DNA from: Candidatus Angelobacter sp.
GTDB lineage: Bacteria; Acidobacteriota; Terriglobia; Terriglobales; Acidobacteriaceae
Assembly: GCA_035279585.1 (NCBI GenBank)
Contig: DATEHN010000108.1
Coordinates: 11,554 to 75,553, forward strand
Length of the DNA stretch: 64,000 nucleotides
Direction of reading: 5' to 3'
The notes under the pieces were generated by a model, which saw only the letters and a program-made list of their open reading frames with translations, had not been told where the DNA came from and did not search any database. This document shows positions 40,467 through 64,000 of this stretch, in pieces; position 1 is the stretch's first letter; each line of letters opens with the position of its first letter. The position numbers and the translations under genes were made by a program.

Positions 40467-41069
40467 TTATCCTTGCCGGACCGCTATACCAGACTTGCGA
40501 TATTTGCGAGCGCACCAGTGAACAAAGCGGCTCGTCAATAAAACAAGCCCACAGCCCAGGGCCAGGCCGATCGGTACGACCCACCAACCGAGAAGGTCTC
40601 GGCCGCCGGCAGGTGGGCTGCCAAAGCCGAGACGAAAAGATATGTCGCCGTTCGAAAGCACCCATACTCCCGCGCTGCGATGGAGTGGTTTCAGTAGCGC
40701 GCAAAGAACAAGGACCAATCCCAAAAAGTACATGGAGATTAATCCTATCAGTGCAAGAAGACCGTTGATGCTCAAAGGGGCCCAACAAAGAAGAACTGGA
40801 AAGAGCCAGGCCGGTGACCGGCTGACAGCCTGCCGGCTCAAGATGCCTGCGAGATACTGGCTAGCCACTTCTTCCGGTGGTCCTATCGATGCCAGCACCT
40901 GGTCTACGGCGTCGGCAGAGACCTCTCCTTTCTCAGCCAGCTTGGCCATGATCTCGCTGCGCACTTCGCTGATCATCTTCTCCACGTCCTGGCTCTTCAA
41001 TTTTCGCAAGTGAGAGCGCAATCTTGAAAGAAACGCTTCTATCTTTTGTTGCGCATCGTCTTTCATCAT
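40467..41069 (-). CDS. DUF1700/HAAS-like membrane protein
   Basis: From ATG 41069 the product reads MMKDDAQQKIEAFLSRLRSHLRKLKSQDVEKMISEVRSEI...VLASIGPPEEVASQY, a DUF1700-type N-terminal helical domain. About 4 TM helices follow. The longer ORF-track start would overlap the halogenase gene. Confidence 0.5.
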   Translation of the reverse strand: MMKDDAQQKIEAFLSRLRSHLRKLKSQDVEKMISEVRSEIMAKLAEKGEVSADAVDQVLASIGPPEEVASQYLAGILSRQAVSRSPAWLFPVLLCWAPLSINGLLALIGLISMYFLGLVLVLCALLKPLHRSAGVWVLSNGDISFRLGFGSPPAGGRDLLGWWVVPIGLALGCGLVLLTSRFVHWCARKYRKSGIAVRQG

Positions 41070-41152
41070 CAATTCGAACCTGTTCCCTTTCTCAAAAATC
41101 CGACCCGCAGGCTGCTCGGGGTTCAGTTGGATTGTATTGCATGGCAATCCAT

Positions 41153-42865
41153 TCATTTTGGCTGCAGAACGCAAAGGCCATTTGAATTACCATTGCTGTA
41201 CAGTGGCGGCAGAGTGGCCGGCGGGAGTCCGGCCTTTTCGATAGGATCAGACCCGCGATACGGCGCCTTGGTTCCACCATAACGTGTACTGAGGTAATCG
41301 TAGACATGCGGCAGTGTTTTGACCAGGTTCTCAGACCGCCTGCGAAGCTCGTCGAAGGCTGCAAAAACCTGAGCTGTGGGCAAATGATCCAGGATCGCCA
41401 GTCCGCGCTTTGGCGCTGCGCCCAGTCCAATCAACATCGAACTGTAGGAATATGCGGTGAAACCGTGGAAATTAGGATTGATGGTTCGGTCGGTTGGCAG
41501 ACGTTCTTTCCACAACTGCAACCGTTCTTTCAGGCCATCGGGTACGACCAGATCGTGCTTTGTGGCTTTCCAGAAGTCGGTATCATCCCTGGTCCCAATT
41601 ACATAATGCATGGTCAGAAATTCGCGAACGCCATCAATGCAATCCGCAACCGCCTTGTTGTAGCTCTTGACGCTGGCCTCGTCGTAGCCGTGTCTGGGAA
41701 AATAATTCACAAGTTGCTCGATCCCGTGGTGAATAAAGAAAATGCCCGTTGACTCCAGGGGTTCTACGAAACCGCTGGCAAGCCCGATTGCCACACAGTT
41801 CTTCACCCATGATCTTGCCGACCTGCCGACTCTCATCTTGATATGCGATGCGCGGCACCCATCGGCCTTCTTGCCTAGATGGTTACGGAACTCCTGCTCC
41901 GCAGCTTCAGGGCTGGTAAAAGCGCTCGAATATACGTACCCTGTGCCGGTTCGATGATAAAGGGGGATCTTCCAGACCCAGCCTGAACTCAAGGCTGTGG
42001 CGGTGGTGTAAGGCTCCATAATATGGTCCGCATGATCGCCGGACACCTGCATGGCAATGGCGCTGTCACAAGGCAGCGACTCGTTGAACGAAATGAAGGG
42101 CTCCTTGAGCGCCCGATTAATCAGCAATCCGCGGAACCCGGTACAGTCAATGAACAGATCACCTTCAATTTCGCCATGGTCTTTGGTCACAATCGACAGA
42201 ATTCGGCCGTCCTCCCCGAGTCTTACGTCTACAACATCATCGAGTACTTGCCGCACACCCTGCTTTTGCGCATAGCCGGTCAAGTATCTCGCGAGTAAAG
42301 AGGCGTCGAAATGATAGGCATAGGGATACTGGATCCTGAGGTCATCCACAAACAATGATTCGTTGTTTGTCTCTGACCCGTTGATGTATCCATCCACCTT
42401 CCGATCAAAAGAATAGCCGTTGAAGTAACGGGGCGACCTTTGCGCATCACAGATTGCCGGGATAGAAAAACATGCATAATCGAACGGCGCGCCCAGTTGA
42501 TCTCTCAGTTTGAGCCACCATTCAATGGTGCTCCATCCCTGCACCAGATCGAATTTCTGAAATGGGTGGTAAAAGTGGCGCCGTTCGCGGTTCCAATTTT
42601 CAAACCGGATCGCGAGTTTGTAGCCGGCGTGGCACTCCGGCATCCAGTCTTCCTCGCGTAAGCCGAGGAACTCGAAAAACAAGTGGATGTAGCTGAAAGT
42701 TGCTTCGCCCACGCCGATGCTGTGGATGTCAGGCGACTCTACGAGTGAAATATCCACCTTGCGGCCGAAGGCTTTGCCGAGGAAAGATGCGGTCATCCAA
42801 CCAGACGAGCCTCCTCCCACGATGACGACTTTGAATTTTCTTTCACTTCCATTGCTGATATCCAT
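41153..42865 (-). CDS. Flavin-dependent (tryptophan-halogenase family) halogenase
   Basis: ATG 42865 is preceded by AAGGATGGAAG. FAD motif VVIVGGGSSGWMTA, then SIGVGEAT. The catalytic-Lys context is AGYKLAIRF and the WxWxIP motif reads GWVWKIPL. Confidence 0.85.
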   Translation of the reverse strand: MDISNGSERKFKVVIVGGGSSGWMTASFLGKAFGRKVDISLVESPDIHSIGVGEATFSYIHLFFEFLGLREEDWMPECHAGYKLAIRFENWNRERRHFYHPFQKFDLVQGWSTIEWWLKLRDQLGAPFDYACFSIPAICDAQRSPRYFNGYSFDRKVDGYINGSETNNESLFVDDLRIQYPYAYHFDASLLARYLTGYAQKQGVRQVLDDVVDVRLGEDGRILSIVTKDHGEIEGDLFIDCTGFRGLLINRALKEPFISFNESLPCDSAIAMQVSGDHADHIMEPYTTATALSSGWVWKIPLYHRTGTGYVYSSAFTSPEAAEQEFRNHLGKKADGCRASHIKMRVGRSARSWVKNCVAIGLASGFVEPLESTGIFFIHHGIEQLVNYFPRHGYDEASVKSYNKAVADCIDGVREFLTMHYVIGTRDDTDFWKATKHDLVVPDGLKERLQLWKERLPTDRTINPNFHGFTAYSYSSMLIGLGAAPKRGLAILDHLPTAQVFAAFDELRRRSENLVKTLPHVYDYLSTRYGGTKAPYRGSDPIEKAGLPPATLPPLYSNGNSNGLCVLQPK

Positions 42866-42994
42866 AGAATTCTTCCATCCTTTTATAAACACAAGTTGAA
42901 ATATCTGGCCGGCGTTGAAAACGCCGTGCACTATCCGGTTTGCCAGGATCAAGCGGACTTCTGGCAGGGAAATTTTGTGGAGGTGGCTTCGGGT

Positions 42995-44542
42995 CTAACT
43001 GCGGAGATGCCCGCTTCCATGGTTGTGGGAAGAAGGTCCCGCCTCGACCAGTCCCGATTCCAGTTCCGGCTCAAGGCAAAACCTCCTGACCGCTTGTTCC
43101 AGCCGTTCCTGCGCTGTTGCCCAGCAACCGGCCTGGCGCCGGACCGCCCGATATTGGTCGAGCCATGTTTCACGAAGTTTTGCAATCTCCGATGCCAAGT
43201 TTTCTGCGGCGGGGCCACCACCATATCTGGCCCTCGCCACACACGACTTCGGATCAAGGTCATCTGGGACATTTTTGAGAATTCCGGTTTCTGACGAGGC
43301 AAGCTGTTTAAGAGAAGTCATGCCGCGTGCAGCCGCTTCAGACACGGCTCTTCCTACGAAATGATGCGCGGAGCGGAAATCCATTCCGCTTTCCAACACC
43401 ATCTGCACTGCCAGGGCCGTCGCATTGGTGAATCCCTCTTCGGCGCGGCGGAGCATCCGTTCAGGGCAGGGACGCGCCCGAGAAACTATCAGCCGCAGCA
43501 ACGTGGTTGCATCAATAATGTCTCGTATGGCGCCCCAAAGAAACCGCACCGACTCGGTGCCTGTGGCGATGGAGTTCGTAAAAGGTGAATTGCGCATGGC
43601 TGTCGCCGCGGTCACAAATGCCCCCAGCGCCGACGCGGTGCGCCCCTGAACGTGTTCCAGGAGAAATGGATTTCTCTTTTGCGGCATGGCTGAACTTGAG
43701 CCCACTAGTTCGTCAGGAAGCTGCAGGAACTGAAATTCGCCGGTGAGCCACAAAAACAAGTCAGTCGAGACTCGACTCAAGGTGACACCCAGGACCGTTG
43801 CTGCAGAGAGAAAGTGCAGGACCAGGTCGCGGGATGCTACCGCATCTACTGAATTGGGGCGTGACGAAGTGAAACCCAGCAACTCGGCCGTTCGCGCAGT
43901 ACTGATTGGAACAGAGGTGCCGGCTACGGCAGCAGCTCCCAGCGGAGATACGTTCACATCACGCGCTGCGTAAATGATTGCATCCAGGTCCCGGCAAACT
44001 GCTTCGGCCACGCCCGCCAGATAGTGCCCATAGGAAATGGGTTCAGCAGGTTGTCCATGAGTGTAAGCCGGCATCACCGTCGCCGAGTGGGCGGTGGCTT
44101 TGCGAATGAGCACCGCCTGCAGCCGCAACACGGCGTTCACTAGCTGAATATAGGGCTGACGCAGTTTCATGCGGATCAGTGTTGCGTTCAGGTCATTGCG
44201 GGATCGCCCCATCTGCAGCATGCCCCCGGCATTATGCCCTTCTCTTTCGATCAAGTAACCTTCATACATCAGAAACAATCCGCGCCATGAAACCGCTTGC
44301 CTGAGCGGACTGAAATTCAGTTGCCGCAGACGCAGGATCGCCTGCAACAAACACCTGGCCGGATCTGCTTGTACGATTCCTCTTTCAGCCAGCATCAGCA
44401 CATGAGCCATGTCAATGGAACTCATGTCAGGGAGATCAGCGTCAATTTGCTGGCTAAGTTCACCCTGGAATAGAATTCGCCGGGCCGTTGCCGATAACGG
44501 TTTCTGAATTCGCCCCGTGCTGGCGTTTGCGAGCGGCATCAC
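42995..44542 (-). CDS. Argininosuccinate lyase-like (fumarase/aspartase superfamily) lyase
   Basis: 515 aa with three superfamily signatures: GRSRNDL, YTHGQPAEP and GSSSAMPQKRNP. Confidence 0.8.
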   Translation of the reverse strand: MMPLANASTGRIQKPLSATARRILFQGELSQQIDADLPDMSSIDMAHVLMLAERGIVQADPARCLLQAILRLRQLNFSPLRQAVSWRGLFLMYEGYLIEREGHNAGGMLQMGRSRNDLNATLIRMKLRQPYIQLVNAVLRLQAVLIRKATAHSATVMPAYTHGQPAEPISYGHYLAGVAEAVCRDLDAIIYAARDVNVSPLGAAAVAGTSVPISTARTAELLGFTSSRPNSVDAVASRDLVLHFLSAATVLGVTLSRVSTDLFLWLTGEFQFLQLPDELVGSSSAMPQKRNPFLLEHVQGRTASALGAFVTAATAMRNSPFTNSIATGTESVRFLWGAIRDIIDATTLLRLIVSRARPCPERMLRRAEEGFTNATALAVQMVLESGMDFRSAHHFVGRAVSEAAARGMTSLKQLASSETGILKNVPDDLDPKSCVARARYGGGPAAENLASEIAKLRETWLDQYRAVRRQAGCWATAQERLEQAVRRFCLEPELESGLVEAGPSSHNHGSGHLRS

Positions 44543-44650
44543 ATTTCTCTCTTGGGCCCGGAAGACGAAGGCGCAGCGCGATTCGTGCGGTTACGTCAAT
44601 GGGCATCGTGTTCGGACTGGAGTTGCTTCAAAGCTCCGTCAACAACACAG

Positions 44651-46243
44651 TTATTGCAGGAGGATTTCTTTCTCACCAAAAAGCCGTTCCGCAATGACGC
44701 CGCGATCCCGGCAGTACTCGATTAAACGATTCGACTCGACAATCGGTCTGGACTCATCGGTGTACTTGATGCTCATGATGTAGTTCAGCCACGGTTCCTG
44801 GCCCATGGCATAGACGTAAGCTTCCCGGCAGTTGTATTGGTCCACAATGCTTTTCGCCTGCTCAAAATTCGATCCAGAGAGGCGGCGCGATTCATCCAGC
44901 GAGCGCTCGAGCCGTTGAGTCAACAGGGGACCATATAACCAGCTTAGCGGCGCTCCGTCACATTCCATTCCAAGAAAAACGGCATCTATGTCTCCGGTTT
45001 CACGGTGCAAATGCGAGTAGAGCCGCGGCTCGACGTTGCACGAATCAGCTGCGAACAAAAGCGAGCGCCTTCCCGCCTTGACCAGATATGCAAGCTTACT
45101 CGCTATATCAAGGTCGGAGTGTTCTCCCAGAAAGGGAAGTCCCACGATGTCCCCATTGGGGGTGGCGATTTGCTGCATCTGGTCAAGCGATATGACCTGT
45201 TTAAAGCCCGCGTTTCTCAACATGAGTTCCAGCGATGGGTCCTGCAAAGAACCGATTGAATTTCTTGGCACCACAACACATTTCACCTTGTGCCGGATCT
45301 GCAGAAGCGTTTCAAAAAGGACATGGTCCTGGTGATTGTGCGTGATCAGGACGTAGTCAATTGAGTCTGGCAGGTCGCAGTAGGTATAGCGAGAAATATC
45401 GCTCTCATACGTGTAACTCAGCACCGGATCGAACATCATACTGACGCCGCCTGTTTCAATCAGAATGCAGGCGTGCCCGAAATAGCGCCAGCGCACCCCC
45501 TGGCCGGTATAAGGCTCATACCTCGGCGGTGGTTCCTCGGTCAGGAATGACCGCAACAGCTTTTCGTCTTCACCCCCCTTGATGCCAAGCATCTCTTTGA
45601 TCTGGCCAAACGGCTTAGGCGATATTTTTGCCTGAAAGAGCGCGTCGACAGACTCATGGTCAAAGGGAAGACGGACATGCAGCAGGCCATCACCTTCCAG
45701 ACGTGGTGTGCTGAGAACGAACGGACGATCGTCGCCACCAGTGAGCGACAGCATCAGACTCTGGGCTGAGCGGTCGTAATACCTGGAACGGTATAACAAT
45801 GGCTCAAGCAATTTGAAGGATGGCTGGTTGTTCAGGTCATAAACGAGTTCTACATAACCTTTCAGTATGTCAGGAACGTCCTTATATAGTGGTTGAAGAG
45901 ATTGACCTTTCGCTTTGCTCCGCAGACATGTGTCGAGGTTCTGTATGGCTTGCGAGAGCTCAACCAGATGCGAGCGCTCACACCGGATGCGGTCCCGCAG
46001 GGCCCGAATCTCGGCCACTCTCTCCCCTCCATAATCAATGAAAGGCCCACCCGACATTTTTGGATTCTTGACAGCTTTTGCATGCACTTGTGGGGCGCTG
46101 ATGTAGGACTCCATTATTTTCATATGCCGCTCAGTTAGATTGCGCGAGGCAGTGGCCGGCGGAATCAGATGCGCCCACGCATACCATTGATCAATGAGCG
46201 GCTCTACTTGAATGTTCTTTTTTAAATAAAGGAGTTGCTCCAT
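44651..46243 (-). CDS. MBL-fold protein with ~250-aa N-terminal domain; candidate CmlA-like diiron amino-acid beta-hydroxylase
   Basis: 530 aa, RBS GGAGA. The MBL core FGHACILIE...VLITHNHQDH lies in the C-terminal half. Size and two-domain layout resemble the NRPS-associated CmlA family. Confidence 0.5.
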   Translation of the reverse strand: MEQLLYLKKNIQVEPLIDQWYAWAHLIPPATASRNLTERHMKIMESYISAPQVHAKAVKNPKMSGGPFIDYGGERVAEIRALRDRIRCERSHLVELSQAIQNLDTCLRSKAKGQSLQPLYKDVPDILKGYVELVYDLNNQPSFKLLEPLLYRSRYYDRSAQSLMLSLTGGDDRPFVLSTPRLEGDGLLHVRLPFDHESVDALFQAKISPKPFGQIKEMLGIKGGEDEKLLRSFLTEEPPPRYEPYTGQGVRWRYFGHACILIETGGVSMMFDPVLSYTYESDISRYTYCDLPDSIDYVLITHNHQDHVLFETLLQIRHKVKCVVVPRNSIGSLQDPSLELMLRNAGFKQVISLDQMQQIATPNGDIVGLPFLGEHSDLDIASKLAYLVKAGRRSLLFAADSCNVEPRLYSHLHRETGDIDAVFLGMECDGAPLSWLYGPLLTQRLERSLDESRRLSGSNFEQAKSIVDQYNCREAYVYAMGQEPWLNYIMSIKYTDESRPIVESNRLIEYCRDRGVIAERLFGEKEILLQ

Positions 46244-46335: not shown

Positions 46336-47595
46336 TCATGCCAGTGCCAGCGTACCAATATTCATTTTTACTTCGATCTTGCCAATTGCATTCCCGGCCG
46401 CCTGAACGGCTTCGCGTTCACTCCTGGCGCAGGAAATGATATGGCCAATTCTGTCGCGAAAGTCGTGATGAGCAGTAAGGGAATCTCCGGGGCTTTTGTA
46501 TGCCTGCACATCAACGATTGCCGGCAAACGTGTGGCTTGGCTCAAGCCCCTAAAACCTTCAAGAATCCCGCCCGATGGCGGACAGATGAAGCGAATACTG
46601 GCATGCAGATAATGGGCCGCTGAAGCTGCGGTCTGTTGGCCGGTAACCAGCCGAATGGTCTGCTCCACGAGGTCAGTGCCGGTCGAGAGACGTACTAGTT
46701 CAGGTATGAACCCGCCTGCGAGGCGTGGATTGATTTCCATAATGCAGAACCTGTGATTGTCGGTGCGAAACTCAACGTGCACGGGTCCCCAGACCATTCC
46801 AGTCACCCGCAAGGCACGCTGAATGGATGCAATCAGGAACTCTGTGCAATGTGAGGAAAAGACCGCAGGAAAATCGTGCCCTGTTTCCACGAAGTAAGGC
46901 TCACTGGAAACGTACTTGCGGGTAATACCGATGACTTGGCCCTGAAAAACTTCCGCTGAGAATTCCGGCCAGCGAACGTATTCCTGCACGATCGCTTCCT
47001 GACGAACAGTCATGCCTCTTTCATTGGTCTTGACCGCCAACAATTTCTGCGCATGGCTTTCCACCTCAAACGGAGTACGGCATAATTTGACACCCACACT
47101 GCCGGTACCGAATACCGGCTTCAGCACCACCGGCAGAGGCAAATCCTGCAAGCTGCCCAGCGCTTCTTCCACTGAGCCAATGCGCCGTGAAGCAGGCGTC
47201 TCTACGCCTCCGTCCCGCAGGCATTTGTACTGGCGCCACTTGTTCCGACAGGTGCCAACCCTCTCGGGTTCCGCCCCCGGAAGTCCGTGGCGACGAGCCA
47301 ATTCAGACGCAGTCTCAATGAAATACTCCGAACTGCTATAGATACCTGCTATCACCTGCCCTTCCCTCGTCCGGCTGATCGCATCATCCAGGGACTCCAC
47401 ATCACTGGTGCAGGGATGCAGCAGAGTTTCAACTTTGTCCTTGTGCACATAGGAATAGCGCTCAGGATTTTGTGTAATCAAGAGCGGATCAAATCCCAGC
47501 CGCCGCGCGGTAGAGATAAAAATCCTTCCCGTCCCACTCGTATTGCTTTCAATCAGGACGATTCTTGGATGTGCGCTTTTCATGGATTTCATCAC
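46336..47595 (-). CDS. ATP-grasp domain ligase
   Basis: 419 aa with ATP-grasp motifs PVVLKPVFGTGSVGVKLC, IVQEYV and MEINPRLAGG. Confidence 0.8.
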   Translation of the reverse strand: MMKSMKSAHPRIVLIESNTSGTGRIFISTARRLGFDPLLITQNPERYSYVHKDKVETLLHPCTSDVESLDDAISRTREGQVIAGIYSSSEYFIETASELARRHGLPGAEPERVGTCRNKWRQYKCLRDGGVETPASRRIGSVEEALGSLQDLPLPVVLKPVFGTGSVGVKLCRTPFEVESHAQKLLAVKTNERGMTVRQEAIVQEYVRWPEFSAEVFQGQVIGITRKYVSSEPYFVETGHDFPAVFSSHCTEFLIASIQRALRVTGMVWGPVHVEFRTDNHRFCIMEINPRLAGGFIPELVRLSTGTDLVEQTIRLVTGQQTAASAAHYLHASIRFICPPSGGILEGFRGLSQATRLPAIVDVQAYKSPGDSLTAHHDFRDRIGHIISCARSEREAVQAAGNAIGKIEVKMNIGTLALA

Positions 47596-47644: not shown

Positions 47645-48931
47645 TCACGTCACTGCCGACCGGGCTAAAGCAGTTTCCAATTGCTCTTGTTCTCTTTTCT
47701 GCATGAGATACCGAAGTGCAGGGGCGGTCATGAAATTCGTCACCAAGGCCATCACTGTAAGAACAAAGAAAGAAGATTGCGGAACAATGCCGAGATCATA
47801 GCCTGCGTTCAGGACAATCAATTCCATCAGGCCTCGTGTATTCATCATCGCGCCGATCGCCCCCGCTTCCTGCCATGAAAACCCGCTCAGTTTTGCGACT
47901 GTTGCACAGGCCCCGATCTTGCCAGCTGAAGCTGTGGCCACCACTACGCAACAAACAAGCCATACCGAGGCGCCCCCGGCGGCGATATCAGTGCGCAGTC
48001 CTGTACATGTAAAAAAAATCGGCAGAAAAAATATTGAGACGAAGTCACGCATGCGGCTGTTGATTGCCGCGCGAAGATCCGCCTGATCATAGAGGATCGC
48101 TCCCATGACAAATGCGCCAAAGAGGGAAAATATGCCGATCAGGTTGGTAATTGCGGCAGAAGCAAGAAGAAATATGATCAACTGCGTTAAAGCATTCCAC
48201 GACAATTCTCTCCCCTGATTGCGCATGACTCGCTGAGTCCACCGGATTACGAGTGGCCTGACTACCAACAGCATCACAAGCAGATAGGCCAGGGTCCCGA
48301 GGGCAGCCATGCCAATCCGCAGCAGGTTAAGCTGCGCAGTTACTACTGCGGAAACCAGAGCTAACAGAAGCCATCCAACGACATCACTTATGGCCGCAGC
48401 CGACATCGTAAGGGCTCCCAGCCGCGTCCTGGTGATGTTGAATTCAATCATGATGCGGCCGAGCACAGGCATGGCAGTTATGGTCAAGGCGGTGGCCAGG
48501 AAAAGAACAAATCCTTTCAAACTGACCCGCAATTCCATTTCCTTCCAAACCCAAGGCCCGACAAAAAGCCCCAGCGCAAAAGGAACGACGATGCCGGCAG
48601 CGGCAATGAAAAATGTAAGACGTTGGGAACTGCGAAGGTGCGTGAAATCGAACTCTAATCCGATCAAGAACATGACGAAGATTAGGCCCACATGACTCAG
48701 AACATTGAGGTACGCCACAGTCGCTGAATTGAAAACCAGGCTTTCAAGATGCGGGGCGAGTGCTCCGAGACATGATGGTCCAAGCAGCATGCCAGCTGCG
48801 ATTTCGCCGCACACCTGCGGCTGTCCCATGCGCCGAAACAAACTGCCAACCAACCGTGCAGCGAGCAAGATCAAAATAAGCTGGATAATGATCCTCAACG
48901 ATAGTAATTCCATGGGATTGATAATCGTCAT
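47645..48931 (-). CDS. Cation:proton antiporter (CPA2 / Kef-NapA type)
   Basis: From ATG 48931 the product reads MTIINPMELLSLRIIIQLILILLAARLVGSLFRRMGQPQVCGEIAAGMLLGPS, a typical CPA2 N-terminus, with ~12 TM helices. Confidence 0.8.
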   Translation of the reverse strand: MTIINPMELLSLRIIIQLILILLAARLVGSLFRRMGQPQVCGEIAAGMLLGPSCLGALAPHLESLVFNSATVAYLNVLSHVGLIFVMFLIGLEFDFTHLRSSQRLTFFIAAAGIVVPFALGLFVGPWVWKEMELRVSLKGFVLFLATALTITAMPVLGRIMIEFNITRTRLGALTMSAAAISDVVGWLLLALVSAVVTAQLNLLRIGMAALGTLAYLLVMLLVVRPLVIRWTQRVMRNQGRELSWNALTQLIIFLLASAAITNLIGIFSLFGAFVMGAILYDQADLRAAINSRMRDFVSIFFLPIFFTCTGLRTDIAAGGASVWLVCCVVVATASAGKIGACATVAKLSGFSWQEAGAIGAMMNTRGLMELIVLNAGYDLGIVPQSSFFVLTVMALVTNFMTAPALRYLMQKREQEQLETALARSAVT

Positions 48932-48980
48932 AGTAGGTTCTTTAAGAGAAAGTAAGACTTTTCCGGGGGCAGTTCCTTCG

Positions 48981-53899: not shown

Positions 53900-54034
53900 C
53901 TCCGTATTCTCCTTTGCGTTGAACGCATGATCGGCAGAGAGAAGCTCATGGAACAGCGTCATTTGCCGGGTCCTGACACGAGCAGACCACGCGAACGCGC
54001 CAGCGCTGAAATCAAAGAGCCGATGTCTAAAGGA

Positions 54035-56511: not shown

Positions 56512-57555
56512 TCAACCGGTAACACTCAAGCTGGCAAAACCTGCCACTTCGGCATAGGTGCGCTGACCCCATTCCATCCATGACCATCCCGGCCCGGCTT
56601 CGAGAGGGCTCTCCACCTGGCGCGGGGCGGTCGGCAGCACCGATAAATTCAAATTGTTCTGAGCGAGATACTCGTCGTTATAGATCGTATCGACATAGCG
56701 GTGGCCGTCGTCCGGGAAAATGCACACCACTTTGGCCTTCTTGTTCTTTCTCGCCCACTCTGAGGCAATTAACCAGGCGGCGCCGCTAGTGCCGCCGCAG
56801 AACAGAGATGTCTGCCGGTGCAGCTCGCGCGTGGCCTTGTAGGCCTCGGCTGCTGTGACCCAGTGGACCTCGTCGAAAATGGTGTGGTCCAGGTTTTCAG
56901 GCAGCAGGCTGTTGCCGAGCCCCCGCAACTGCCTCGGGCCTTCGGGCTGGCCAAACAACACGCTGCCGAACGTATCAACGCCCACTGCTTTCAAATCGGG
57001 GTAAAGCATGCGTAAATAGCTCGTTGTGCCACACATCGACCCTCCTGATCCCACTGTGCCTACCAGGCAATCGATCTGCCCGAGGGATTCCACCAGTTGT
57101 CCTGCAAATTGACCATAGGCTCCTGGATTACAGGGATTGTGGTACTGGCTAACCCACCAGGTATTCTTCTCTTCCGCTCGGATCTTTTCCAGGCAATCGA
57201 GACGAGCCCTCTGATAGCCGCCTGCAGCCGCCGGACCGCTCACAATCTCTACGCGGGCTCCAAGGTCTTCCAACCGCTTTCGTAACGCGCCTTCGCAGGC
57301 GTAATCCGATACGATCACGAGCCGGTATTTCCTGAGATTGCAGATGATCGCCAGCCCCAAAGCCATATTTCCAGATGAGCTTTCAACAATCAGAGACTGG
57401 GATTGGATCCAGCCTTCTTCCTGTGCGCGCCGTATGCAGAACTCTGCGGGAAAGAGTTTCATGAACGGAAAAACTGCAGCATACAGATTGTGCTCAAGTG
57501 GAACAAGCCGTGGCTGATAGCAGCTGAGAATTGCGGATTCTTTTTGATCACTCAT
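56512..57555 (-). CDS. Fold-type II PLP enzyme of the cysteine synthase family, SbnA-like
   Basis: Lys context FMKLFPA, ESSSGNMALGLA, phosphate loop GTVGSGGSMCG, GGTSGAA and C-terminal IFPDDGHRYVDTIY. From memory, the overall layout parallels SbnA-type beta-replacement enzymes. Confidence 0.7.
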   Translation of the reverse strand: MSDQKESAILSCYQPRLVPLEHNLYAAVFPFMKLFPAEFCIRRAQEEGWIQSQSLIVESSSGNMALGLAIICNLRKYRLVIVSDYACEGALRKRLEDLGARVEIVSGPAAAGGYQRARLDCLEKIRAEEKNTWWVSQYHNPCNPGAYGQFAGQLVESLGQIDCLVGTVGSGGSMCGTTSYLRMLYPDLKAVGVDTFGSVLFGQPEGPRQLRGLGNSLLPENLDHTIFDEVHWVTAAEAYKATRELHRQTSLFCGGTSGAAWLIASEWARKNKKAKVVCIFPDDGHRYVDTIYNDEYLAQNNLNLSVLPTAPRQVESPLEAGPGWSWMEWGQRTYAEVAGFASLSVTG

Positions 57556-57590
57556 GGTATCGACCGTTGGGAATAAAAGTGGAAGTTAAG

Positions 57591-58580
57591 TCAGGTCTGG
57601 AATCTGATGATTTCCTTAATATCCAATGTGCCCAGATCATGCCGTATCCGGTTCACCTTGGTTTCAAGCTGGTGATCGTGAGGATTCAACAGAATACTGG
57701 CCACGGTACCGGAGTGGGCTACTGCCACGCCGAGCGCGTTTGCTGCCCGCGCAATGGCGCGGATTTCAGGAAACATAGGCTTGGGCAGGAATTCCTGATT
57801 GATGGCGGCGCTCGCCATCGCCACCTGTCCAATTACGGCAATGTCCTGGTCGCGGAAGCCTCTGCGCAAACCGGCAACCAGTGCATGAAAACACTGGATC
57901 TGACGCCACGTGTATACCGCGGGCGGAAAGTCCAGCGTATTGACAGCGCCATCGACCTCGGTATCGAACCCCAACACCTCGATCTTCGGTAGTTCCGCGC
58001 CGAATTTCTCGAGAACGACGCCTTCCCGGTGGGCGAACAGAACACTCTGTTTAAACATGACGTTGTCACTTGCAATCTCCGCTTCGACAACAATCCTGGC
58101 CAGATCTTCCTCACTGAGCACCTGACCAATTGAGTCCAAGATGGCAAGAGACGCAGCAGCGCAGTCAGCCGTGGAGCTGCCACACCCCTTCGCTTCATCA
58201 ATATTACTTTCAATTGTCAGTCGCCCTCCCAATGTCTCCAGGCCAAAACGGCTAAGCGTAATTTCAGCAACCCTCCTGGCTTTATTCTTGTGGGCGGGCT
58301 CAATCTCCAGGCCGCCTTCATCCGATGGGATAAAGGTTGCTGTTGAATAGAGGACATTGCACCGCAGGCTAAGCAGAAACCGGCGCTTTTGAAAATTCCT
58401 GTCCTCAAGCTGGCCCTGCAGTATCTCGCCATACTGGCCAATACAAACGCCGGCGCCGATGGCCGGAGGAGAATAGGCAGCCCGTTCGATCAGATGCGTC
58501 CTCTCCAGGATCTCAGAGGAAACCATGGTTCCTGCGCCATTCGTCGAGCCAACACTGAAGTATTTCGCGGCCTGGTTCAT
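57591..58580 (-). CDS. GHMP-superfamily kinase (PduX/ThrB-like small-molecule hydroxyl kinase)
   Basis: N-terminal GQYGEILQGQ (compare GELLQG of PduX-type kinases). GHMP motif II-like EAKGCGSSTADCAAASLA. 329 aa. Confidence 0.6.
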   Translation of the reverse strand: MNQAAKYFSVGSTNGAGTMVSSEILERTHLIERAAYSPPAIGAGVCIGQYGEILQGQLEDRNFQKRRFLLSLRCNVLYSTATFIPSDEGGLEIEPAHKNKARRVAEITLSRFGLETLGGRLTIESNIDEAKGCGSSTADCAAASLAILDSIGQVLSEEDLARIVVEAEIASDNVMFKQSVLFAHREGVVLEKFGAELPKIEVLGFDTEVDGAVNTLDFPPAVYTWRQIQCFHALVAGLRRGFRDQDIAVIGQVAMASAAINQEFLPKPMFPEIRAIARAANALGVAVAHSGTVASILLNPHDHQLETKVNRIRHDLGTLDIKEIIRFQT

Positions 58581-58694: not shown

Positions 58695-60347
58695 TTAAAC
58701 AACCATCTCGCTGGCATTGTCTTTCTGAAGCTGCCGATCGTCGACCACCTGTCCAGTGTCGAGCTTGATGATTCGATCGGCAATGTGGTAATAGCGTTCA
58801 TCGTGACTTATTACAAAGACTGTCTTGCCCATGAGCTTCATTTCAGGCACAAGCTGGCAATAAAACACCTCTCGGAATGCCGCATCCTGGTCCGCAGCCC
58901 ATTCATCCAGAATTACGATGGGCCGGTTCTCCAGATAGGAGACCAGCAAAGCAAGCCGCTTGCGCTGCCCTTGGGACAGGTTCAGGGTCGAAAGAACGCC
59001 GTCCTTGATCTGGACTTTTTCGTCGAGTTGCAACTCACGCAAGTGCGCTGAGACCCGGTAATCGAGAGCGGTTTTTTGAATTCCCAGCAGGCTCTCAAAC
59101 AGATAGAAATCCGCAAAGATCGCGGAAAAATATTGCCGAAAGTTGTCCCTGTTCTGATCGTCGATGGCTTGGCCATCCAATAGGATCGTTCCCTGTTCGG
59201 GTTGATACAATCCGCAGAGCACCTTCGCCAGGGTTGTCTTTCCGCTTCCATTGCCGCCGCTAAGAAAGACCACTTCGCCGGCTGTGAAGCTGAGATCAAT
59301 GGGCCCCAGCACAAACCTTCCGGCTCCATCATCTCTCTGGTATGAAAATCCCACATTGACCAGTTCCAGGCTGTTCCACTTTATCGTTGGCTCCAGTTGC
59401 ACAAACGGTTCTTCCTCTGAATTTCTGGCGGCGAGTGTCAGCCCCATTTGCTCAACCACTTTCACAGCCACATTGGCTTTCCCTATGGCTGGAGCCTGGT
59501 TCATGAGATATCCCACCGGCTCCAGCACATACATCACTACGAAGACGAATGTCGTCAGTTCTTTGTCACTGACGTGCGCCAGGTGCGGAGCAGTAAAAAC
59601 CAGCAGACCAATGGTGAAGAATGCCATCAACTCCCCCCAGGCGTTCCCCAGCACATAAGTTTTCATCGCGGACATGGCATGGCGCTGAAAGCGTGCGGCG
59701 CTTTCCTGCACACCCGTGAAGAACGCCTGGCGTCGTCCACGGTTCAATTTCAGCTCTTTGATGCCGCTGACCAACGACCGCACATGGCCCAGGACATTGT
59801 TATGCTCCATTCTGCCTTTGGCCAAGTGGCGCGCAGCGATCATCATCGGGAGTTGATAGGTGATCAGCCCTACCGTGATTGCCCCAGCCACAACCAGAAA
59901 AAGAATGGGTGAAAGCCAAGCCAGAAAGACCAGACAGGTAATCATGGCAGACAGGTTCACACACCATTGGGGAAAATTCGAGACAGCATTCAGAATACTC
60001 ACGGCATCATCGGTAAGAACGCCGATGAGCCGGGGCAATCCGATTTCTTCCAATTGCCGCAAGGGAACTCCCAGAATCTGGCGGCATAATTCCATCCGGC
60101 ACTTGAACAAAGCCTGTTGTCCGATATGTTGCAGGAGAACCGCAGAGGCCGCCCGCGCAGCCAGCGCCACGCCAGTCAAGGCAACGAACATGAGGATGAG
60201 CCTGCCGGCGCTGCTTGTGTCGTGTTTCAACCCTGCGCTAATGACAACCAGCAGTGCCGCGGAAGCGGCGCCGCCTACAACTCCAGCAATAACGGCCAGA
60301 ATCAGCGAGTGCCGTGAGTGTTGTAGCATAAATCTGACAAGTTTCAT
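58695..60347 (-). CDS. Cyclic-peptide-type ABC exporter (fused TMD-NBD, SyrD/PvdE-like)
   Basis: 550 aa with six TM helices. Walker A GGNGSGKTT, signature LSQGQRKRL and Walker B VILDEWAADQD. This architecture is typical of NRPS-linked cyclic peptide transporters. Confidence 0.85.
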   Translation of the reverse strand: MKLVRFMLQHSRHSLILAVIAGVVGGAASAALLVVISAGLKHDTSSAGRLILMFVALTGVALAARAASAVLLQHIGQQALFKCRMELCRQILGVPLRQLEEIGLPRLIGVLTDDAVSILNAVSNFPQWCVNLSAMITCLVFLAWLSPILFLVVAGAITVGLITYQLPMMIAARHLAKGRMEHNNVLGHVRSLVSGIKELKLNRGRRQAFFTGVQESAARFQRHAMSAMKTYVLGNAWGELMAFFTIGLLVFTAPHLAHVSDKELTTFVFVVMYVLEPVGYLMNQAPAIGKANVAVKVVEQMGLTLAARNSEEEPFVQLEPTIKWNSLELVNVGFSYQRDDGAGRFVLGPIDLSFTAGEVVFLSGGNGSGKTTLAKVLCGLYQPEQGTILLDGQAIDDQNRDNFRQYFSAIFADFYLFESLLGIQKTALDYRVSAHLRELQLDEKVQIKDGVLSTLNLSQGQRKRLALLVSYLENRPIVILDEWAADQDAAFREVFYCQLVPEMKLMGKTVFVISHDERYYHIADRIIKLDTGQVVDDRQLQKDNASEMVV

Positions 60348-60492
60348 CTGCCCCCTCCATGGCCAGTCGATTGCTTCTCAACGACCTTGGTGGATACCTT
60401 TATCGGATGGTTTGGTATGTGATTACAGAAGCGCCGCCGGGGACTGTTTCTCGCCGGTTTGTTTCAGGCTGCAGTCTGACAACGCGCGATGA

Positions 60493-63400
60493 TCAAGCTG
60501 TGAAAGATGCAAGTTTTTTCAATGTGCCCGCATACTGCACCAAAGCATCCTGGGCGCGGTCCTTTGATACTAGGGCGGGATCATACCCTACATGCAGGAA
60601 CCCGCCCTGCCGGAGTGCGCCCACAAGCGCGGAGCAAACGATTGGAAACGAGAAACGGTCAAACGCGCGCATGTTTTTCAGTTTTAAGTTTGCCGTTGCC
60701 GGAAGGTCCTTCATGTTCCAGAAATTCAGGTAGCGAAAGACCGAGGTAAAAGCTTCGCGCCCGGCCCGATCCGCCAAAAGTTGCGGCAGCGGGTAGGCTG
60801 CATAGGGCTCAATGTCCAGAATATCCTTCTGCACCACTTCTGCCTGCTCTAGAAGCGGCCGCCGCTGCCGGGAAACAATCGGCACGATGTTCCAGAAAAG
60901 CCCTACGGCAGAAAGCGGGTCCGAAAGATATTCTGAGCGCCCGTTCATAAGAACGCCCGTACACACCTGTTCCTGTCCGAGCCAGGCGCGCAGGCTCTCA
61001 AGCCATGCGGTCAGCATGAGGGCCTGCATGGAAACTGCCCGTTTACGTGCCAATTGCACCAATGCCTGGGTCAGATCTGGTTCGATCGGATGCAAAATGC
61101 CAGGGTCGTCGGGCCCAGAATCGCTTGCATCTGGCTGTAAACGTTCCGGCGCGTCAATTCCAGAAAGGTAGTTCTGCCAGAACTGTGCGGCTTTTGCCGA
61201 GCGTCGCACTAATTCCTGCACTGCCACAAATTCGCGGTAAGTCGTGTCCGGTGCCCCGAAGTCGGGTTTTTGACCTAATTTGATTTTTGTATAAGCCTCC
61301 AGAAGCTGGTTGGTGAAAACCCGGTGACCCCAGCCGTCCATGATTGCGTGATGGAAGGAAAACAAGAGATCAAATTCGACAGCGGACCGCAAGAACGCGG
61401 TAACCCTGAACAACGGCACGCTGCGGTTGCCGATATCAAAAAGCCGTGCCCGGTCGGCCAGTAAGGCAGCAGAAATGTGCTCCTCCTGCTCCTCTGCCTT
61501 GAGCTGCGCGATGTCTTCTGTTGCTATCTTGTAGTTCAGGTTGCGGCGTACCCATTGCATCGGCTCGGCACCGTCAAGATGGAAGACGGTCCGCAATGCT
61601 GCGTGCCGGTCCACAACCACACGAAGAGCGGCCTCCAGAGCTTCCGGAGAAAACTGCGGATCTGACAGATGCATGCACTCCTGGATGTGATATACACCTT
61701 GGCTTCCCTGGTTCTCGGCATATTTCTCCAGCATGAACTTCTGCATGCCTGCCACCGGGTAGGCATCAATGACGTCCTCCGGCAGCCCCGGAATCGTCTC
61801 AGGCGCTGGAAATGCCGGTAAAGAAATTCCCTCTGGAAACAAACTTTGGCGGCGTTTCGCTTGAATTGCCTTGCGCAGCCGCCGGATTGTTTGATTGCGC
61901 AGAATATCGGTGGCCGCGATCCCCAGTCCGTAACGGCGCGTTTCCTGGACTAGTTGGACCACCCGCAAGGAATCGCCTCCGAGCGAGAAGTAATTATCGT
62001 CTACGCTGATTCGCTCAATTCCCAGGACTTCTTGCCACACGGCCAGGAGCTTTTCTTCAATCTCATCCAGCGGCTCCCGCAGTTCTGCCGGTTCGGTGGC
62101 CGGAACAGTTGTGGGCAAGGCTTGACGGTCGATCTTTCCATTGGGCGTCAGTTTGAGTTTGTCAACGCAGAAAAGGTTCCTGGGAATCATGTAGTAAGGC
62201 AGGCTTTTTTCCAGAAACTGTCTCAGCTCTTCTGCGGAGGTCCGGGAATGCCCTGTGACCACCCATGCTGTGAGATAGTTGCTCTGCATCTGGTCTTGCG
62301 TGGTGATCACGGCAGCATTACTCACATTGGGATGCCCGCATAATACCGCCTCAATCTCGCCCGGCTCCACACGATAGCCATTGATTTTTACCTGCACATC
62401 CCGTCGGCCCAGGAACTGCATGGTTCCATCGCTCCGGTACCGCGCTATGTCGCCCGTGCGATACATGCGTGCACCCGGCTTTGCGGAAAACGGATCGGGA
62501 ATGAAAGCGTTCGCCGTCAAGGCGGCGTTCGCAGTGTATCCTCGGCCTACGAATTCGCCGCCGACATACAACGCTCCAGAAGTCCAGACCGGGACTGGCT
62601 GCAGCTCTTCGTCGAGCAAATAGGCCCTTGCGCCGATGAAAGGTTGCCCGATTGGGACCGCGTCTCCCGCAAAGCGTTCTGTCTCAGGCCGTGCGGCGCC
62701 GCAAACCACACCGATTGTCGTTTCAGTGGGCCCATAGTGGTTGAACACTGTGCATTCGGGGGCCAGTCGATGCACCTGTTCCACCACTTTCCATTTCAGT
62801 TGCTCTCCCCCGGCGAGAACGTAGCGCCACCGCAATTTTGCGGATTGCGGAAAGGAGTTGCACAGCGCTTCCAAGTGGGCAGGAACAATCTTGATAAAGT
62901 CGATCGGGTGTTGTTGAAAATATTCCGCCAAAGCATCAACGTCTTTCGCTTTCCAAGCGGGTATGACGTGCAGGCATCCACCTGATGTCAGCGCGCCAAA
63001 TACGGCGGTGTAAGCGAGATCGGCCGCCAGGGTAGACACCACAGCGAAATTACTGGTGCTTCGCAAATCAATGTTGGCGTGCTCAGCGCGTATGTAGGCC
63101 GCAATTTGCCCGTGCTCGATGGCTACCCCCTTGGGGTGGCCGGTTGATCCTGAAGTAAAAATCACATATGCGAGTTGGCGCGAATGCGTGCGGGCATGCC
63201 GCGGGCGTTTAGAGGAAATGGCGCCAGGCCGATGATCTTCCAGATAGAGGACCGGGAGCGCGCCGTGGTTGAACGACGAAGAGAGCCCTTGCTGCGTCAG
63301 CACAGCGACGGCCCCGGCCGCTCTCGTCATGTACTCGATGCGCTCGATCGGCATATCAGGCTCGATCGGCAGCCAGGCCCCGCCCGCTTTCATCACGGCA

Positions 63401-64000
63401 AGCATGCCCACGATGAAGTCCGGCGACCTCTCAGCCAGAAGTGCAATAACGGAATCCGCGGTGACGCCGGCTTCCTGCAGACGCTCGCCCAAGATGATCG
63501 CTCGCCGGTTCAGTTCATCATAGGTTAGCTGTTCCGTTTCACCTACGACGGCCAATTTGCCGGGATTGCGGCGCGCCTCGTCTTCAATGATCTCGTGAAT
63601 TGCGCGCCATTCGCTTTTCTGCTCCAAGGGAGCTTCAGCGATTCGTTCTGCAGCAGGAGTCGCGGCGCCCATGACAAATTCACACGCGCGGGTTCCTGGA
63701 TTGGCCGCGATTTCTTCAAGAATAGCCACCAGAGAATCTCCGAGCAGCCTGATGTCCGTCACGGAGAATACCCCGGCGTCCCACGCGAATTCGAGGCGTA
63801 TGGTTTCTTTTCCTGTCACCGATGTCAACCCGAGTTCAAATGGTTCAACTTGTTCAACGACAGAAGTCACTGTCCAGGCATTGCGGTCGTCTACGCCAAT
63901 GAATGGCTGCTCGCGGTTCGCAAATTGTATTGGAAAAAGACAACGGCGTTGAGAAGGGGGCGGGACGCCAAAGGGCTCCCAGGCAAACAGGAACTGGTCG
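60493..64000 (-). CDS. Non-ribosomal peptide synthetase, 3' part (…C-A-T-C), 5' end outside the window
   Basis: I translated the frame upstream of the ORF-track start (GTG 63870) and it stays open to position 64000. The end of a C domain is visible. The A domain carries LTYDELN, MKAGGAWLPIE, YVIFTSGSTGHPKG, NHYGPTETT, YRTGD, GRRDVQVKINGYRVEPGEIE and NGKIDR. The T domain has LGGDSL. A full terminal C domain has HHAIMDGWG. No TE domain is present. Confidence 0.9.
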   Translation of the reverse strand, partial: DQFLFAWEPFGVPPPSQRRCLFPIQFANREQPFIGVDDRNAWTVTSVVEQVEPFELGLTSVTGKETIRLEFAWDAGVFSVTDIRLLGDSLVAILEEIAANPGTRACEFVMGAATPAAERIAEAPLEQKSEWRAIHEIIEDEARRNPGKLAVVGETEQLTYDELNRRAIILGERLQEAGVTADSVIALLAERSPDFIVGMLAVMKAGGAWLPIEPDMPIERIEYMTRAAGAVAVLTQQGLSSSFNHGALPVLYLEDHRPGAISSKRPRHARTHSRQLAYVIFTSGSTGHPKGVAIEHGQIAAYIRAEHANIDLRSTSNFAVVSTLAADLAYTAVFGALTSGGCLHVIPAWKAKDVDALAEYFQQHPIDFIKIVPAHLEALCNSFPQSAKLRWRYVLAGGEQLKWKVVEQVHRLAPECTVFNHYGPTETTIGVVCGAARPETERFAGDAVPIGQPFIGARAYLLDEELQPVPVWTSGALYVGGEFVGRGYTANAALTANAFIPDPFSAKPGARMYRTGDIARYRSDGTMQFLGRRDVQVKINGYRVEPGEIEAVLCGHPNVSNAAVITTQDQMQSNYLTAWVVTGHSRTSAEELRQFLEKSLPYYMIPRNLFCVDKLKLTPNGKIDRQALPTTVPATEPAELREPLDEIEEKLLAVWQEVLGIERISVDDNYFSLGGDSLRVVQLVQETRRYGLGIAATDILRNQTIRRLRKAIQAKRRQSLFPEGISLPAFPAPETIPGLPEDVIDAYPVAGMQKFMLEKYAENQGSQGVYHIQECMHLSDPQFSPEALEAALRVVVDRHAALRTVFHLDGAEPMQWVRRNLNYKIATEDIAQLKAEEQEEHISAALLADRARLFDIGNRSVPLFRVTAFLRSAVEFDLLFSFHHAIMDGWGHRVFTNQLLEAYTKIKLGQKPDFGAPDTTYREFVAVQELVRRSAKAAQFWQNYLSGIDAPERLQPDASDSGPDDPGILHPIEPDLTQALVQLARKRAVSMQALMLTAWLESLRAWLGQEQVCTGVLMNGRSEYLSDPLSAVGLFWNIVPIVSRQRRPLLEQAEVVQKDILDIEPYAAYPLPQLLADRAGREAFTSVFRYLNFWNMKDLPATANLKLKNMRAFDRFSFPIVCSALVGALRQGGFLHVGYDPALVSKDRAQDALVQYAGTLKKLASFTA

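Follow-up and report, generated by a model that had tools for sequence, protein, structure and literature searches.

A probable collinear non-ribosomal peptide synthetase cluster of Candidatus Angelobacter with a predicted 2,3-diaminobutyrate cassette, aspartate beta-hydroxylation and chlorotryptophan supply

Extent and overall reading of the cluster

The 64,000-nucleotide stretch of Candidatus Angelobacter DNA analysed here (hereafter the window) carries, at positions 40467-64000, the 3' part of a collinear biosynthetic gene cluster (BGC) of the non-ribosomal peptide synthetase (NRPS) type, at least 40 kb long and from an uncultured Acidobacterium of soil. The best explanation of the region as a whole, which we consider likely, is a collinear assembly line served by a cassette for 2,3-diaminobutyrate (Dab), by beta-hydroxylation of aspartate and by a supply of chlorinated tryptophan. 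Judged by family and gene content, five of its genes (encoding a kinase, a pyridoxal phosphate (PLP) enzyme, an ATP-grasp protein, an argininosuccinate-lyase (ASL)-like lyase and a threonine aldolase) are the published Dab cassette in its aldolase-containing, pacidamycin-type form, and the order ...-Val-(N-Me)Dab-like-X-Asp can be read from the modules that are visible. The gene set predicts a halogenated, probably methylated and hydroxylated peptide with a non-proteinogenic residue made by the cluster, as had been proposed from the sequence in the original prediction.

Sixteen consecutive minus-strand open reading frames (ORFs) were listed at 40467-64000; every one was present where the original prediction had placed it, and Pfam and NCBIfam returned the same 16 families. 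With gene starts taken from an identical public contig, the gaps between the 16 genes were, in order, 145, 114, 35, 23, 72, 55, 100, 41, 58, -38, 49, 92, 108, 42 and -22 nt, and the upper limit of 145 nt claimed for all of them held (-38 to 145 nt). The number of genes claimed for the string was right for this interval, but the co-directional string was found to be longer at both ends. Downstream of the last of the 16, a HAAS/DUF1700-like membrane protein gene (40467-41174, minus strand; Pfam HAAS, 7.6e-10), it continues with an SnoaL-like gene (39655-40059) and a doubtful ORF of 112 codons (40081-40419). At the opposite end, the NRPS was correctly said to run past the window: its frame is open to base 64000 and continues on a 100 % identical contig.

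Sequences of the ATP-binding cassette (ABC) exporter and the NRPS were found on three public contigs. One of these (L005) overlapped the window over 7968 nt with 0 mismatches and added 16.7 kb upstream. It displayed the rest of the NRPS that is cut by the window (NRPS_C, 1496 aa in full, gene start ~983 nt beyond the window) and at least five further co-directional genes upstream of 64000: a TauD gene (346 aa) between NRPS_B and NRPS_C, NRPS_B itself (1573 aa), a second CmlA-like gene (564 aa) before NRPS_B, NRPS_A (2589 aa) and, upstream of NRPS_A, the end of an NRPS of 1460 aa that has a docking domain at its N-terminus. The cluster was read as far as the end of this 1460-aa protein, and ~7.9 kb of the same contig lie beyond. 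A search with the last 129 residues of the 1460-aa protein found short carrier-protein fragments only.

Domain order and specificity codes of the assembly line

Domain order and codes were obtained from motif scans, alignments and manual code extraction, and substrate calls rely on reference codes. The 1460-aa NRPS, of which only the end was seen, is organized as C-A(MT)-T (C, condensation; A, adenylation; MT, methyltransferase; T, thiolation), and NRPS_A as C-A-T-C-A(MT)-T. The first A domain of NRPS_A displayed the code DAFWLGGTF, the classical Val code. Its second A domain displayed DIWEINTDD, with three acidic positions, and harbored between A8 and A10 an insertion of ~420 residues with a motif binding S-adenosylmethionine (SAM), typical of an N-methylation domain. 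Variants of the acidic code (DIWEINADD, DVWEVNADD and DIWQSTADD) were encountered on five further loci with an ASL-like lyase (L022/L023, L048, L071 and L072), the last of which showed only this lyase, without the rest of the cassette. Because the variants recur on lyase-carrying loci, DIWEINTDD was read as a diamino-acid code; this co-occurrence supports the assignment, as does the acidic nature of codes for diamino acids. The second A domain of NRPS_A would load Dab, and the Dab residue would be N-methylated.

NRPS_B is organized as C-A-T-C, with a functional C-terminal C domain (HHIAFDA). Its code, DAEHIGAIT, was identical in the ortholog from a related metagenome-assembled genome (MAG; contig L006), and the Glu at position 239 hints at a substrate with a cationic side chain. 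Epimerisation-domain motifs were absent from the NRPS sequences read. The terminal C domains had been considered as epimerisation domains, and this was rejected since they lacked such motifs and aligned with C-type motifs instead. A calcium-dependent lipopeptide of the daptomycin/friulimicin type, in which methyltransferase and aminotransferase would provide 3-methyl-Glu, was also rejected: a single Asp module can be seen, and a series of DXDG-type modules is lacking.

The aspartate module and the end of the line

Within the window, NRPS_C (minus strand) comprises the 3' end of an N-terminal C-like domain (63666-64000, open to 64000; full gene on L005), an A domain (62134-63585; Pfam AMP-binding and AMP-binding_C), a thiolation or peptidyl carrier protein domain (61873-62055; Pfam PP-binding; LGGDSL) and a C-terminal C domain (60496-61863). 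The A domain displayed the code DLTKLGHIG(K), and that of the 52 %-identical ortholog on L006 DLTKFGHVG. DLTKVGHIGK is the published Stachelhaus code for Asp, and the domain accordingly reads as Asp-specific.

When the cluster's six C-like domains were aligned, the one at the N-terminus of NRPS_C displayed GSALCADAAS instead of HHxxxDG, and the motif was likewise lost in the L006 ortholog. The protein encoded between NRPS_B and NRPS_C matched Pfam TauD, had At3g21360 and 9yut as solved relatives and retained the HNE...H residues. Stand-alone aspartyl beta-hydroxylases reportedly dock on a non-catalytic NRPS 'interface' domain. Because a dead C-like domain precedes the Asp module and a TauD gene lies between NRPS_B and NRPS_C, beta-hydroxy-Asp is predicted: the stand-alone TauD enzyme, docked on the dead 'interface' domain, would hydroxylate Asp on NRPS_C. 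The arrangement resembles those of SyrP (syringomycin) and DelD (delftibactin), where a TauD/TfdA gene stands beside an Asp module preceded by a C-like domain without catalytic histidines. It differs from them in that the true C domain and the interface-like domain reside on two proteins with the hydroxylase gene in between, and in that the context is no obvious siderophore cluster.

The C-terminal C domain has an intact HHAIMDG motif and a first motif of the YPxxxxQ type, and resembles C domains of the C_modAA type. Its identity to the five remaining C-like domains did not exceed 13-20 %, and its best solved relatives were McyA2-C (8jbr, 1e-44) and the dehydrating C domain of AmbE (7r9x, 5e-29). 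Its alignment score was 426 against McyA2-C (four catalytic C domains, 216-323; dead domain, 116) and 293 against AmbE-C (other five C-like domains, 136-254). These similarities suggest a dehydrating domain of the C_modAA type. In a search of 1.8 billion representatives, the seven closest proteins (38-55 % identity) all carried this domain at the extreme C-terminus, and several of them measured ~1500 aa like NRPS_C. Both in the window and on L006, NRPS_C ends 2-3 residues past the domain, with no downstream acceptor carrier domain or thioesterase (TE).

Two precedents are available. TauD-type hydroxylation by AmbC/AmbD is followed by the dehydrating C domain of AmbE, and in albopeptide the terminal C domain AlbB-C3 dehydrates and hydrolyses (review, PMC10880069). 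Among solved structures, the domain examined here is nearest to AmbE-C2 and the C domain of McyA module 2. It shares with the AMB system (AmbC, AmbD, AmbE) a position after a module with TauD-type hydroxylation, predicted in the present case, and with AlbB-C3 its place at the end of the line, this being the sole precedent that fits the lack of an acceptor. Unlike in the C_modAA systems, the donor would be beta-hydroxy-Asp and neither a T domain nor a TE follows. To our knowledge, no dehydrating C domain has been described for beta-hydroxy-Asp. Dehydration, release or both by the terminal C domain are possible. In the pathway proposed here, this domain would end the visible line, either passing the chain on or, less certainly, dehydrating beta-hydroxy-Asp and releasing the chain.

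An ordinary elongating domain is a real, if somewhat doubtful, possibility for the same position. The chain would then be transferred to an NRPS encoded elsewhere, beta-hydroxy-Asp would be kept, and release would be left to a TE outside the region or to the stand-alone thioesterase that the cluster encodes. NRPS_B also ends in a C domain, which serves the next protein, and a C domain at a protein end is no proof of termination here; moreover, part of the known contig upstream is still unread, and the margin of the terminal domain over its sister C domains toward the dehydrating type is moderate. On the other hand, no NRPS gene follows NRPS_C on the strand and the gene order is otherwise collinear with the domain logic. 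The low identity to the other C-like domains, the proximity to McyA2-C and AmbE-C and the C-terminal position in all seven closest representatives also speak against a simple elongating role.

The diaminobutyrate cassette

Synthesis of (2S,3R)-Dab by the dabABC genes of Burkholderia thailandensis was described by Li et al. 2024 (PMC10906522). DabA is a GHMP-family L-Thr kinase, the CysK/SbnA-like DabB joins O-phospho-Thr with L-Asp, and DabC, an ATP-grasp/ASL-like protein, eliminates fumarate. According to the same study, DabC is split into two proteins (DabC-N and DabC-C) in some other Dab operons. The aldolase-containing form belongs to the clusters for pacidamycin, napsamycin and mureidomycin, in which the isomer used is (2S,3S)-Dab; Dab producers consistently have the kinase gene, which is confined to them, and the aldolase occurs in (2S,3S)-Dab operons.

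All of these components have counterparts on the minus strand of the window. The GHMP-family kinase (57591-58580; Pfam GHMP_kinases_N) is DabA-like and, after the function given in PMC10906522, a predicted L-threonine kinase; no solved relative was found for it, and NCBIfam gave only weak homoserine-kinase matches. The fold-type II PLP enzyme (56512-57555), of the SbnA family, is DabB/SbnA-like and predicted to replace the beta-phosphate of O-phospho-Thr with L-Asp. Its best solved relative was SbnA, and Lys33, which aligned with the Schiff-base lysine of SbnA, was invariant among 35 homologs. The ATP-grasp protein (46336-47595) and the ASL-like enzyme (42995-44542) matched positions 5-394 (1.5e-104) and 407-884 (1.8e-126), respectively, of NF002563, an NCBIfam model of a fused ATP-grasp/ASL protein of 890 residues. 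Since they correspond to its two halves, together they display the architecture of DabC, the former as N-terminal and the latter as C-terminal half, with a predicted release of fumarate giving Dab. The ASL signature GSSSAMPQKRNPF and a YTHxQ motif were invariant in 24 homologs of the lyase. The PLP threonine aldolase (48981-50102) belongs to the GntG family (NF041359, 374 bits), and its nearest solved relatives were L-allo-threonine aldolases (5e-76).

In the proposed route the kinase would phosphorylate L-Thr, or allo-Thr equilibrated by the aldolase; the PLP enzyme would exchange the phosphate for the amine of L-Asp, and the ASL-like lyase would expel fumarate to yield Dab. By analogy with the aldolase-containing operons, the isomer would probably be (2S,3S). 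The precursor-supply set, presented as unusual in the original prediction, corresponds to a published cassette (PMC10906522).

The comparison with dabABC was made by family and gene content. The GHMP kinase, the CysK/SbnA-like PLP enzyme, the ATP-grasp protein and the ASL-like lyase are all present, the DabC halves are split as in some other Dab operons, and a threonine aldolase is encoded as in the pacidamycin, napsamycin and mureidomycin clusters. In contrast to dabABC, seven genes stand between those of the kinase and PLP enzyme and those of the aldolase, ATP-grasp protein and lyase, and the acidobacterial cassette is accompanied by an ADOP permease, an IlvE-type aminotransferase and a CmlA-like hydroxylase. 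A further difference resides in the aldolase::lyase fusion of some acidobacterial relatives. This fusion was encountered in two proteins of Angelobacter relatives (P0212 and P0214) and provides independent evidence that the ASL-like lyase and the aldolase act together.

Several variants of the cassette were recorded on other contigs. P0214 (L011 10001-12610, another Angelobacter MAG) is a lyase-aldolase fusion of ~869 aa following kinase, PLP enzyme and ATP-grasp genes; its cluster further encodes a radical SAM/B12 enzyme, a nicotianamine-synthase-like protein and M20 peptidases, with no NRPS within 10 kb. Two loci (L095 8654-11488 and L096 3580-6414) displayed an ATP-grasp and ASL-like pair, 63 % identical to the window lyase, without kinase, PLP enzyme or NRPS and beside a GntR-aminotransferase regulator and an EamA transporter; this pair may have a function independent of Dab synthesis. 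On a 442-kb contig (L093 10001-11095, L094 757-2229), the ASL-like gene of a kinase-PLP-ATP-grasp-ADOP cassette was found in pieces of 364 aa and 111 aa, which reflects either a frameshift or a decaying copy.

Besides the moderate margin of the terminal C domain, several observations weigh against the pathway as proposed. In the profile and structure libraries, similarity of the kinase to characterised Thr kinases was not detectable, and the PLP enzyme matched the SbnA family with 229 bits (7.5e-68), short of the equivalog cut-off. No report of the A-domain codes was found in the literature searched. DabB and DabC also take O-phosphoserine to give L-2,3-diaminopropionate (L-Dap; PMC10906522), and Dap may be the product here in place of Dab. 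Any Trp-activating module, starter and TE would lie at the 5' end, beyond the part of the cluster that was read. The halogenase, and a CPA2 antiporter in its cassette position, recur only on one related contig (L007), and the flavin reductase and methyltransferase recur on none of 40 related loci. A consensus scan for terminators and promoters stayed at chance level, and no stop codon was immediately followed by a terminator-like site, a result that fits co-transcription of the string without proving it.

It is unlikely that the five genes make L-Dap or another beta-amino acid, for instance from a beta-hydroxy amino acid built by the aldolase, instead of 2,3-Dab. The acceptance of O-phosphoserine by DabB and DabC favors such a product, as do the lack of a sequence tie between the kinase and known Thr kinases and the conserved partners of the acidobacterial cassette (IlvE-type aminotransferase, CmlA-like enzyme and ADOP), which are foreign to the published operon. 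Against it stand the restriction of the kinase to Dab producers, the presence of the aldolase in (2S,3S)-Dab operons (PMC10906522) and the proximity of the present aldolase to L-allo-threonine aldolases.

Another improbable alternative combines a hydroxylate-then-eliminate last module with an extended diamino-acid sub-cluster altering the block beyond plain Dab. In that combination, TauD would beta-hydroxylate the carrier-bound Asp, and the terminal C domain would dehydrate it to a 2,3-dehydroaspartyl end and free the chain; hydrolysis of such an enamide at the C-terminus could even yield a peptide amide and oxaloacetate. The sub-cluster, conserved among soil Acidobacteria in this view, would comprise the kinase, PLP enzyme, ADOP permease, IlvE-type aminotransferase, ATP-grasp protein, CmlA-like hydroxylase, aldolase and lyase. 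We know of no bacterial non-ribosomal peptide for which a dehydroaspartyl residue and such a release logic have been described.

Tailoring, transport and accessory genes

The genes below, all on the minus strand, complete the string around the assembly line and the Dab cassette. The flavin-dependent tryptophan halogenase (41153-42952; Trp_halogenase 3e-141) belongs to the PyrH/SttH/Th-Hal clade. It aligned end to end with its best solved relatives, 6nsd (deposited as 'Tryptophan halogenase'), SttH, Th-Hal and PyrH (1e-169 to 1e-176), and displayed GGGSSGW and GWVWKIP as well as the catalytic Lys (in GYKLA) and Glu (in VEPLES). Like those enzymes it has thus kept all catalytic motifs, and the cluster also encodes a reductase. 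Activity on free L-Trp at C5 or C6 is predicted. The loop that controls regioselectivity in SttH, as known from mutagenesis, reads HGFTAYSY in the window and is intermediate between that of the C5 enzyme PyrH (HGFETYSW) and that of SttH, Th-Hal and 6nsd (HGLPPYSY); 6nsd is presumably Tar14 of taromycin, a C6 halogenase. The halogenase ORF as listed carries ~35 extra N-terminal residues beyond the homology, the homolog on L007 measuring 566 aa, and the true start may lie downstream of the listed one.

The predicted supplier of FADH2 to the halogenase is an HpaC/StyB-type flavin reductase (50161-50727; Pfam Flavin_Reduct 5.9e-40; reductase components in NCBIfam), located 7.2 kb away. The two enzymes would make 5- or 6-chloro-L-Trp for an upstream module outside the part that was read.

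CmlA1 (44651-46243; CmlA_N 2e-94) is a CmlA-type diiron enzyme predicted to beta-hydroxylate a carrier-bound amino acid. Among solved structures it matched 8a90 best (2e-143) and CmlA with 1e-128. Both CmlA-like paralogs of the cluster consist of CmlA_N and a metallo-beta-lactamase fold with HxHxDH (HNHQDH in CmlA1), and across related loci the two are ~39 % identical to each other. They share the two-domain architecture and metal motif of CmlA from the chloramphenicol pathway; a difference is that one of the two is linked with the Dab sub-cluster, its conservation (73-85 %) exceeding that of the Dab enzymes. The two would beta-hydroxylate two carrier-bound residues other than Asp, one of them probably on NRPS_B.

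The stand-alone type II thioesterase (51952-52845; Pfam Thioesterase; GHSMG) would edit carrier domains or possibly release in trans. Directly downstream of NRPS_C, the exporter (58695-60347; TIGR01194, 469 bits versus a cut-off of 286) fuses transmembrane and nucleotide-binding domains and is of the cyclic-peptide (SyrD/PvdE-like) type. Halogenase with flavin reductase, CmlA-like hydroxylase, type II thioesterase and SyrD-type exporter are standard NRPS accessories, and the tailoring set could not be upheld as unusual.

Inside the cassette lies a duplicated MacB-like permease of the ADOP family (54035-56488; TIGR03434, 819 bits versus a cut-off of 622). A permease of this type was repeatedly observed between the PLP enzyme and the next biosynthetic gene (L009, L012, L013, L021, L092 and L093 among others), with no adjoining ATPase. 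Such recurrence suggests a role tied to the pathway, in export or self-protection, rather than chance. The ABC exporter, perhaps together with ADOP and the CPA2 cation:proton antiporter (47645-49018; Pfam Na_H_Exchanger, TIGR00932), would serve export or self-protection of the product.

Next to the permease, the class IV aminotransferase (52901-53962) is of the IlvE-type branched-chain group (NF005146, 359 bits versus a cut-off of 279). The SAM-dependent methyltransferase (50769-51851), a lineage-specific gene, displayed weak matches to Methyltransf_11/25 and weak solved relatives only (MitM and DnrK). A metagenome scan with the methyltransferase alone found no matches, and its single-sequence AlphaFold model had a mean pLDDT (the model's confidence score) of 40. 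The idea that this methyltransferase and the aminotransferase form an obligate pair was discarded, the methyltransferase being missing from all relatives that keep the aminotransferase.

Conservation in related soil loci

An alignment of lyase homologs retrieved 80 soil-metagenome loci, and genes were counted by tblastn on the 40 lyase-carrying loci that measure at least 10 kb (41 with L006 added). The ATP-grasp gene was present on 34 of the 40 and the PLP enzyme gene on 32, followed by the kinase (24, adjoining the PLP gene), aldolase (15), thioesterase (13), ADOP (11) and a CmlA1-type gene (10; homologs with 73-85 % identity on nine related loci in all, L007, L009, L010, L012, L013, L021, L034, L037 and L049). 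An NRPS was found on 21 of the 41 loci, L006 included, and an ABC exporter homolog on eight related loci of at least 10 kb. The IlvE-type aminotransferase was restricted to three of the 40 (L012, L013 and L021), L092 having a Pfam Aminotran_4 gene in the same position. Finally, CPA2 was encountered on two loci, the halogenase on one (L007), and the methyltransferase, flavin reductase, HAAS and SnoaL genes on none.

Two other MAGs shared gene order with the window at 60-85 % protein identity. L006 displayed NRPS_B-TauD-NRPS_C-ABC-kinase-PLP-ADOP, and L007 aldolase-CPA2-ATP-grasp-CmlA-ASL-halogenase. The halogenase and CPA2 of L007, in the same positions as in the window, were 81 % and 66 % identical, respectively, to their counterparts. 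CPA2 was observed between aldolase and ATP-grasp genes only where a halogenase was also present (the window and L007 942-2234).

On the basis of these counts, the string is a conserved acidobacterial NRPS/Dab core to which, as far as sequences reveal, the halogenation genes, methyltransferase and CPA2 were added in this lineage. HAAS homologs were not found in related loci, and on L007 another gene follows the halogenase; because no related locus carries it, the HAAS gene is probably outside the cluster, which most likely ends after the halogenase. The 16 genes do not, in consequence, form the single unit that had been implied.

Because they are near-absent from related loci, the link of the halogenase, CPA2, flavin reductase and methyltransferase to the peptide is positional only. 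These four genes might even have been inserted into an older NRPS/Dab cluster to serve something else or nothing, a juxtaposition that we regard as quite unlikely. It would agree with their sporadic occurrence among the ~40 loci sharing the core, with the distance between halogenase and reductase and with the lack of a Trp-specific A domain among the modules read. The added genes alternate, on the other hand, with core genes of the same strand, the gaps being 100 nt at most, halogenase and CPA2 hold the same positions on L007, and the upstream modules are still unread.

Comparison with characterised clusters

No characterised cluster was found to match in the homology and literature searches made, in agreement with the original prediction. 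Homologs of NRPS_B with at least 62 % identity came from uncultured Acidobacteria only, the best named NRPSs reaching ~40-43 %, and the best 120 matches of the lyase had generic names or none. A scan for NRPS_B in one genome per species, the source genome not being among them, found unrelated matches only (22-35 % identity). Crits-Christoph et al. 2022 linked no BGC of Candidatus Angelobacter to MIBiG. The BGC-rich genomes of Crits-Christoph et al. 2018/2022 belong to the same genus and are likewise abundant in NRPS clusters, none of them linked to MIBiG; they differ in that no gene-level account of this cluster was given. Literature searches found neither a report of such a cluster nor a characterised natural product of Candidatus Angelobacter. 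By sequence comparison, each sub-module has a described counterpart and the whole cluster is without a close characterised relative; as a genetic system it is not of a new kind.

A metallophore or siderophore, in place of an antibiotic-like peptide, is a weak candidate for the product: siderophore lines are marked by beta-hydroxy-Asp from a stand-alone hydroxylase with an interface domain and the exporter is of the PvdE/SyrD type, but neither the 64-kb window nor the upstream extension displayed a TonB-dependent receptor, ferric-siderophore uptake or an N-hydroxylase/catechol gene, a single chelating residue is visible in the modules read, chlorotryptophan and N-methylation are atypical of siderophores, and syringomycin contains the same Asp hydroxylation in a toxin.

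The pathway favored here, an assembly line with Dab, beta-hydroxy-Asp and chlorotryptophan, makes a testable prediction, namely an N-methylated peptide that contains chlorotryptophan, 2,3-diaminobutyrate and several beta-hydroxy residues. Candidatus Angelobacter, a genus of Acidobacteriota in the class Terriglobia, is abundant in soils and carries unusually many biosynthetic clusters. Together with the ~40 related soil loci that share the diamino-acid sub-cluster, the present cluster is a sensible target for genome mining and for synthesis-based or heterologous discovery. It also offers a test case for the role of the ATP-grasp half of DabC and for a C_modAA-type domain acting on beta-hydroxy-Asp.

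Neighbouring features of the window

The first 36 kb of the window contain housekeeping and regulatory genes. Among them, a 910-aa protein (27636-30368, plus strand) displayed weak matches to cytochrome P460, cbb3-type and MtrC-like multihaem proteins and is possibly a large multihaem cytochrome of extracytoplasmic location. Another duplicated permease of the ADOP type is encoded at 30828-33326 (plus strand); directly after it come genes for a sigma-54-dependent response regulator and for a PAS histidine kinase (33345-36189, plus strand).

Converging on the NRPS string, a class III lanthipeptide synthetase gene, LanKC (36809-39547, plus strand), matched NF038151 with 764 bits (cut-off 575). 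Just upstream of it, an ORF of 59 codons (36499-36678, plus strand) encodes a product ending in ...VLNFQRL...SSTSSICSTVPTTGSGIPAN. This ORF is a plausible lanthipeptide precursor, with a leader motif and a Ser/Ser/Cys core, and together with LanKC it would make up another peptide cluster, of the ribosomal kind, adjoining the NRPS cluster. At 40313-40354, in the interval that separates the HAAS gene from the SnoaL gene, there is a perfect (ACA)14 microsatellite. It accounts for 14 valines in the 112-codon ORF (40081-40419, minus strand), which displayed no family match and is probably not a gene.

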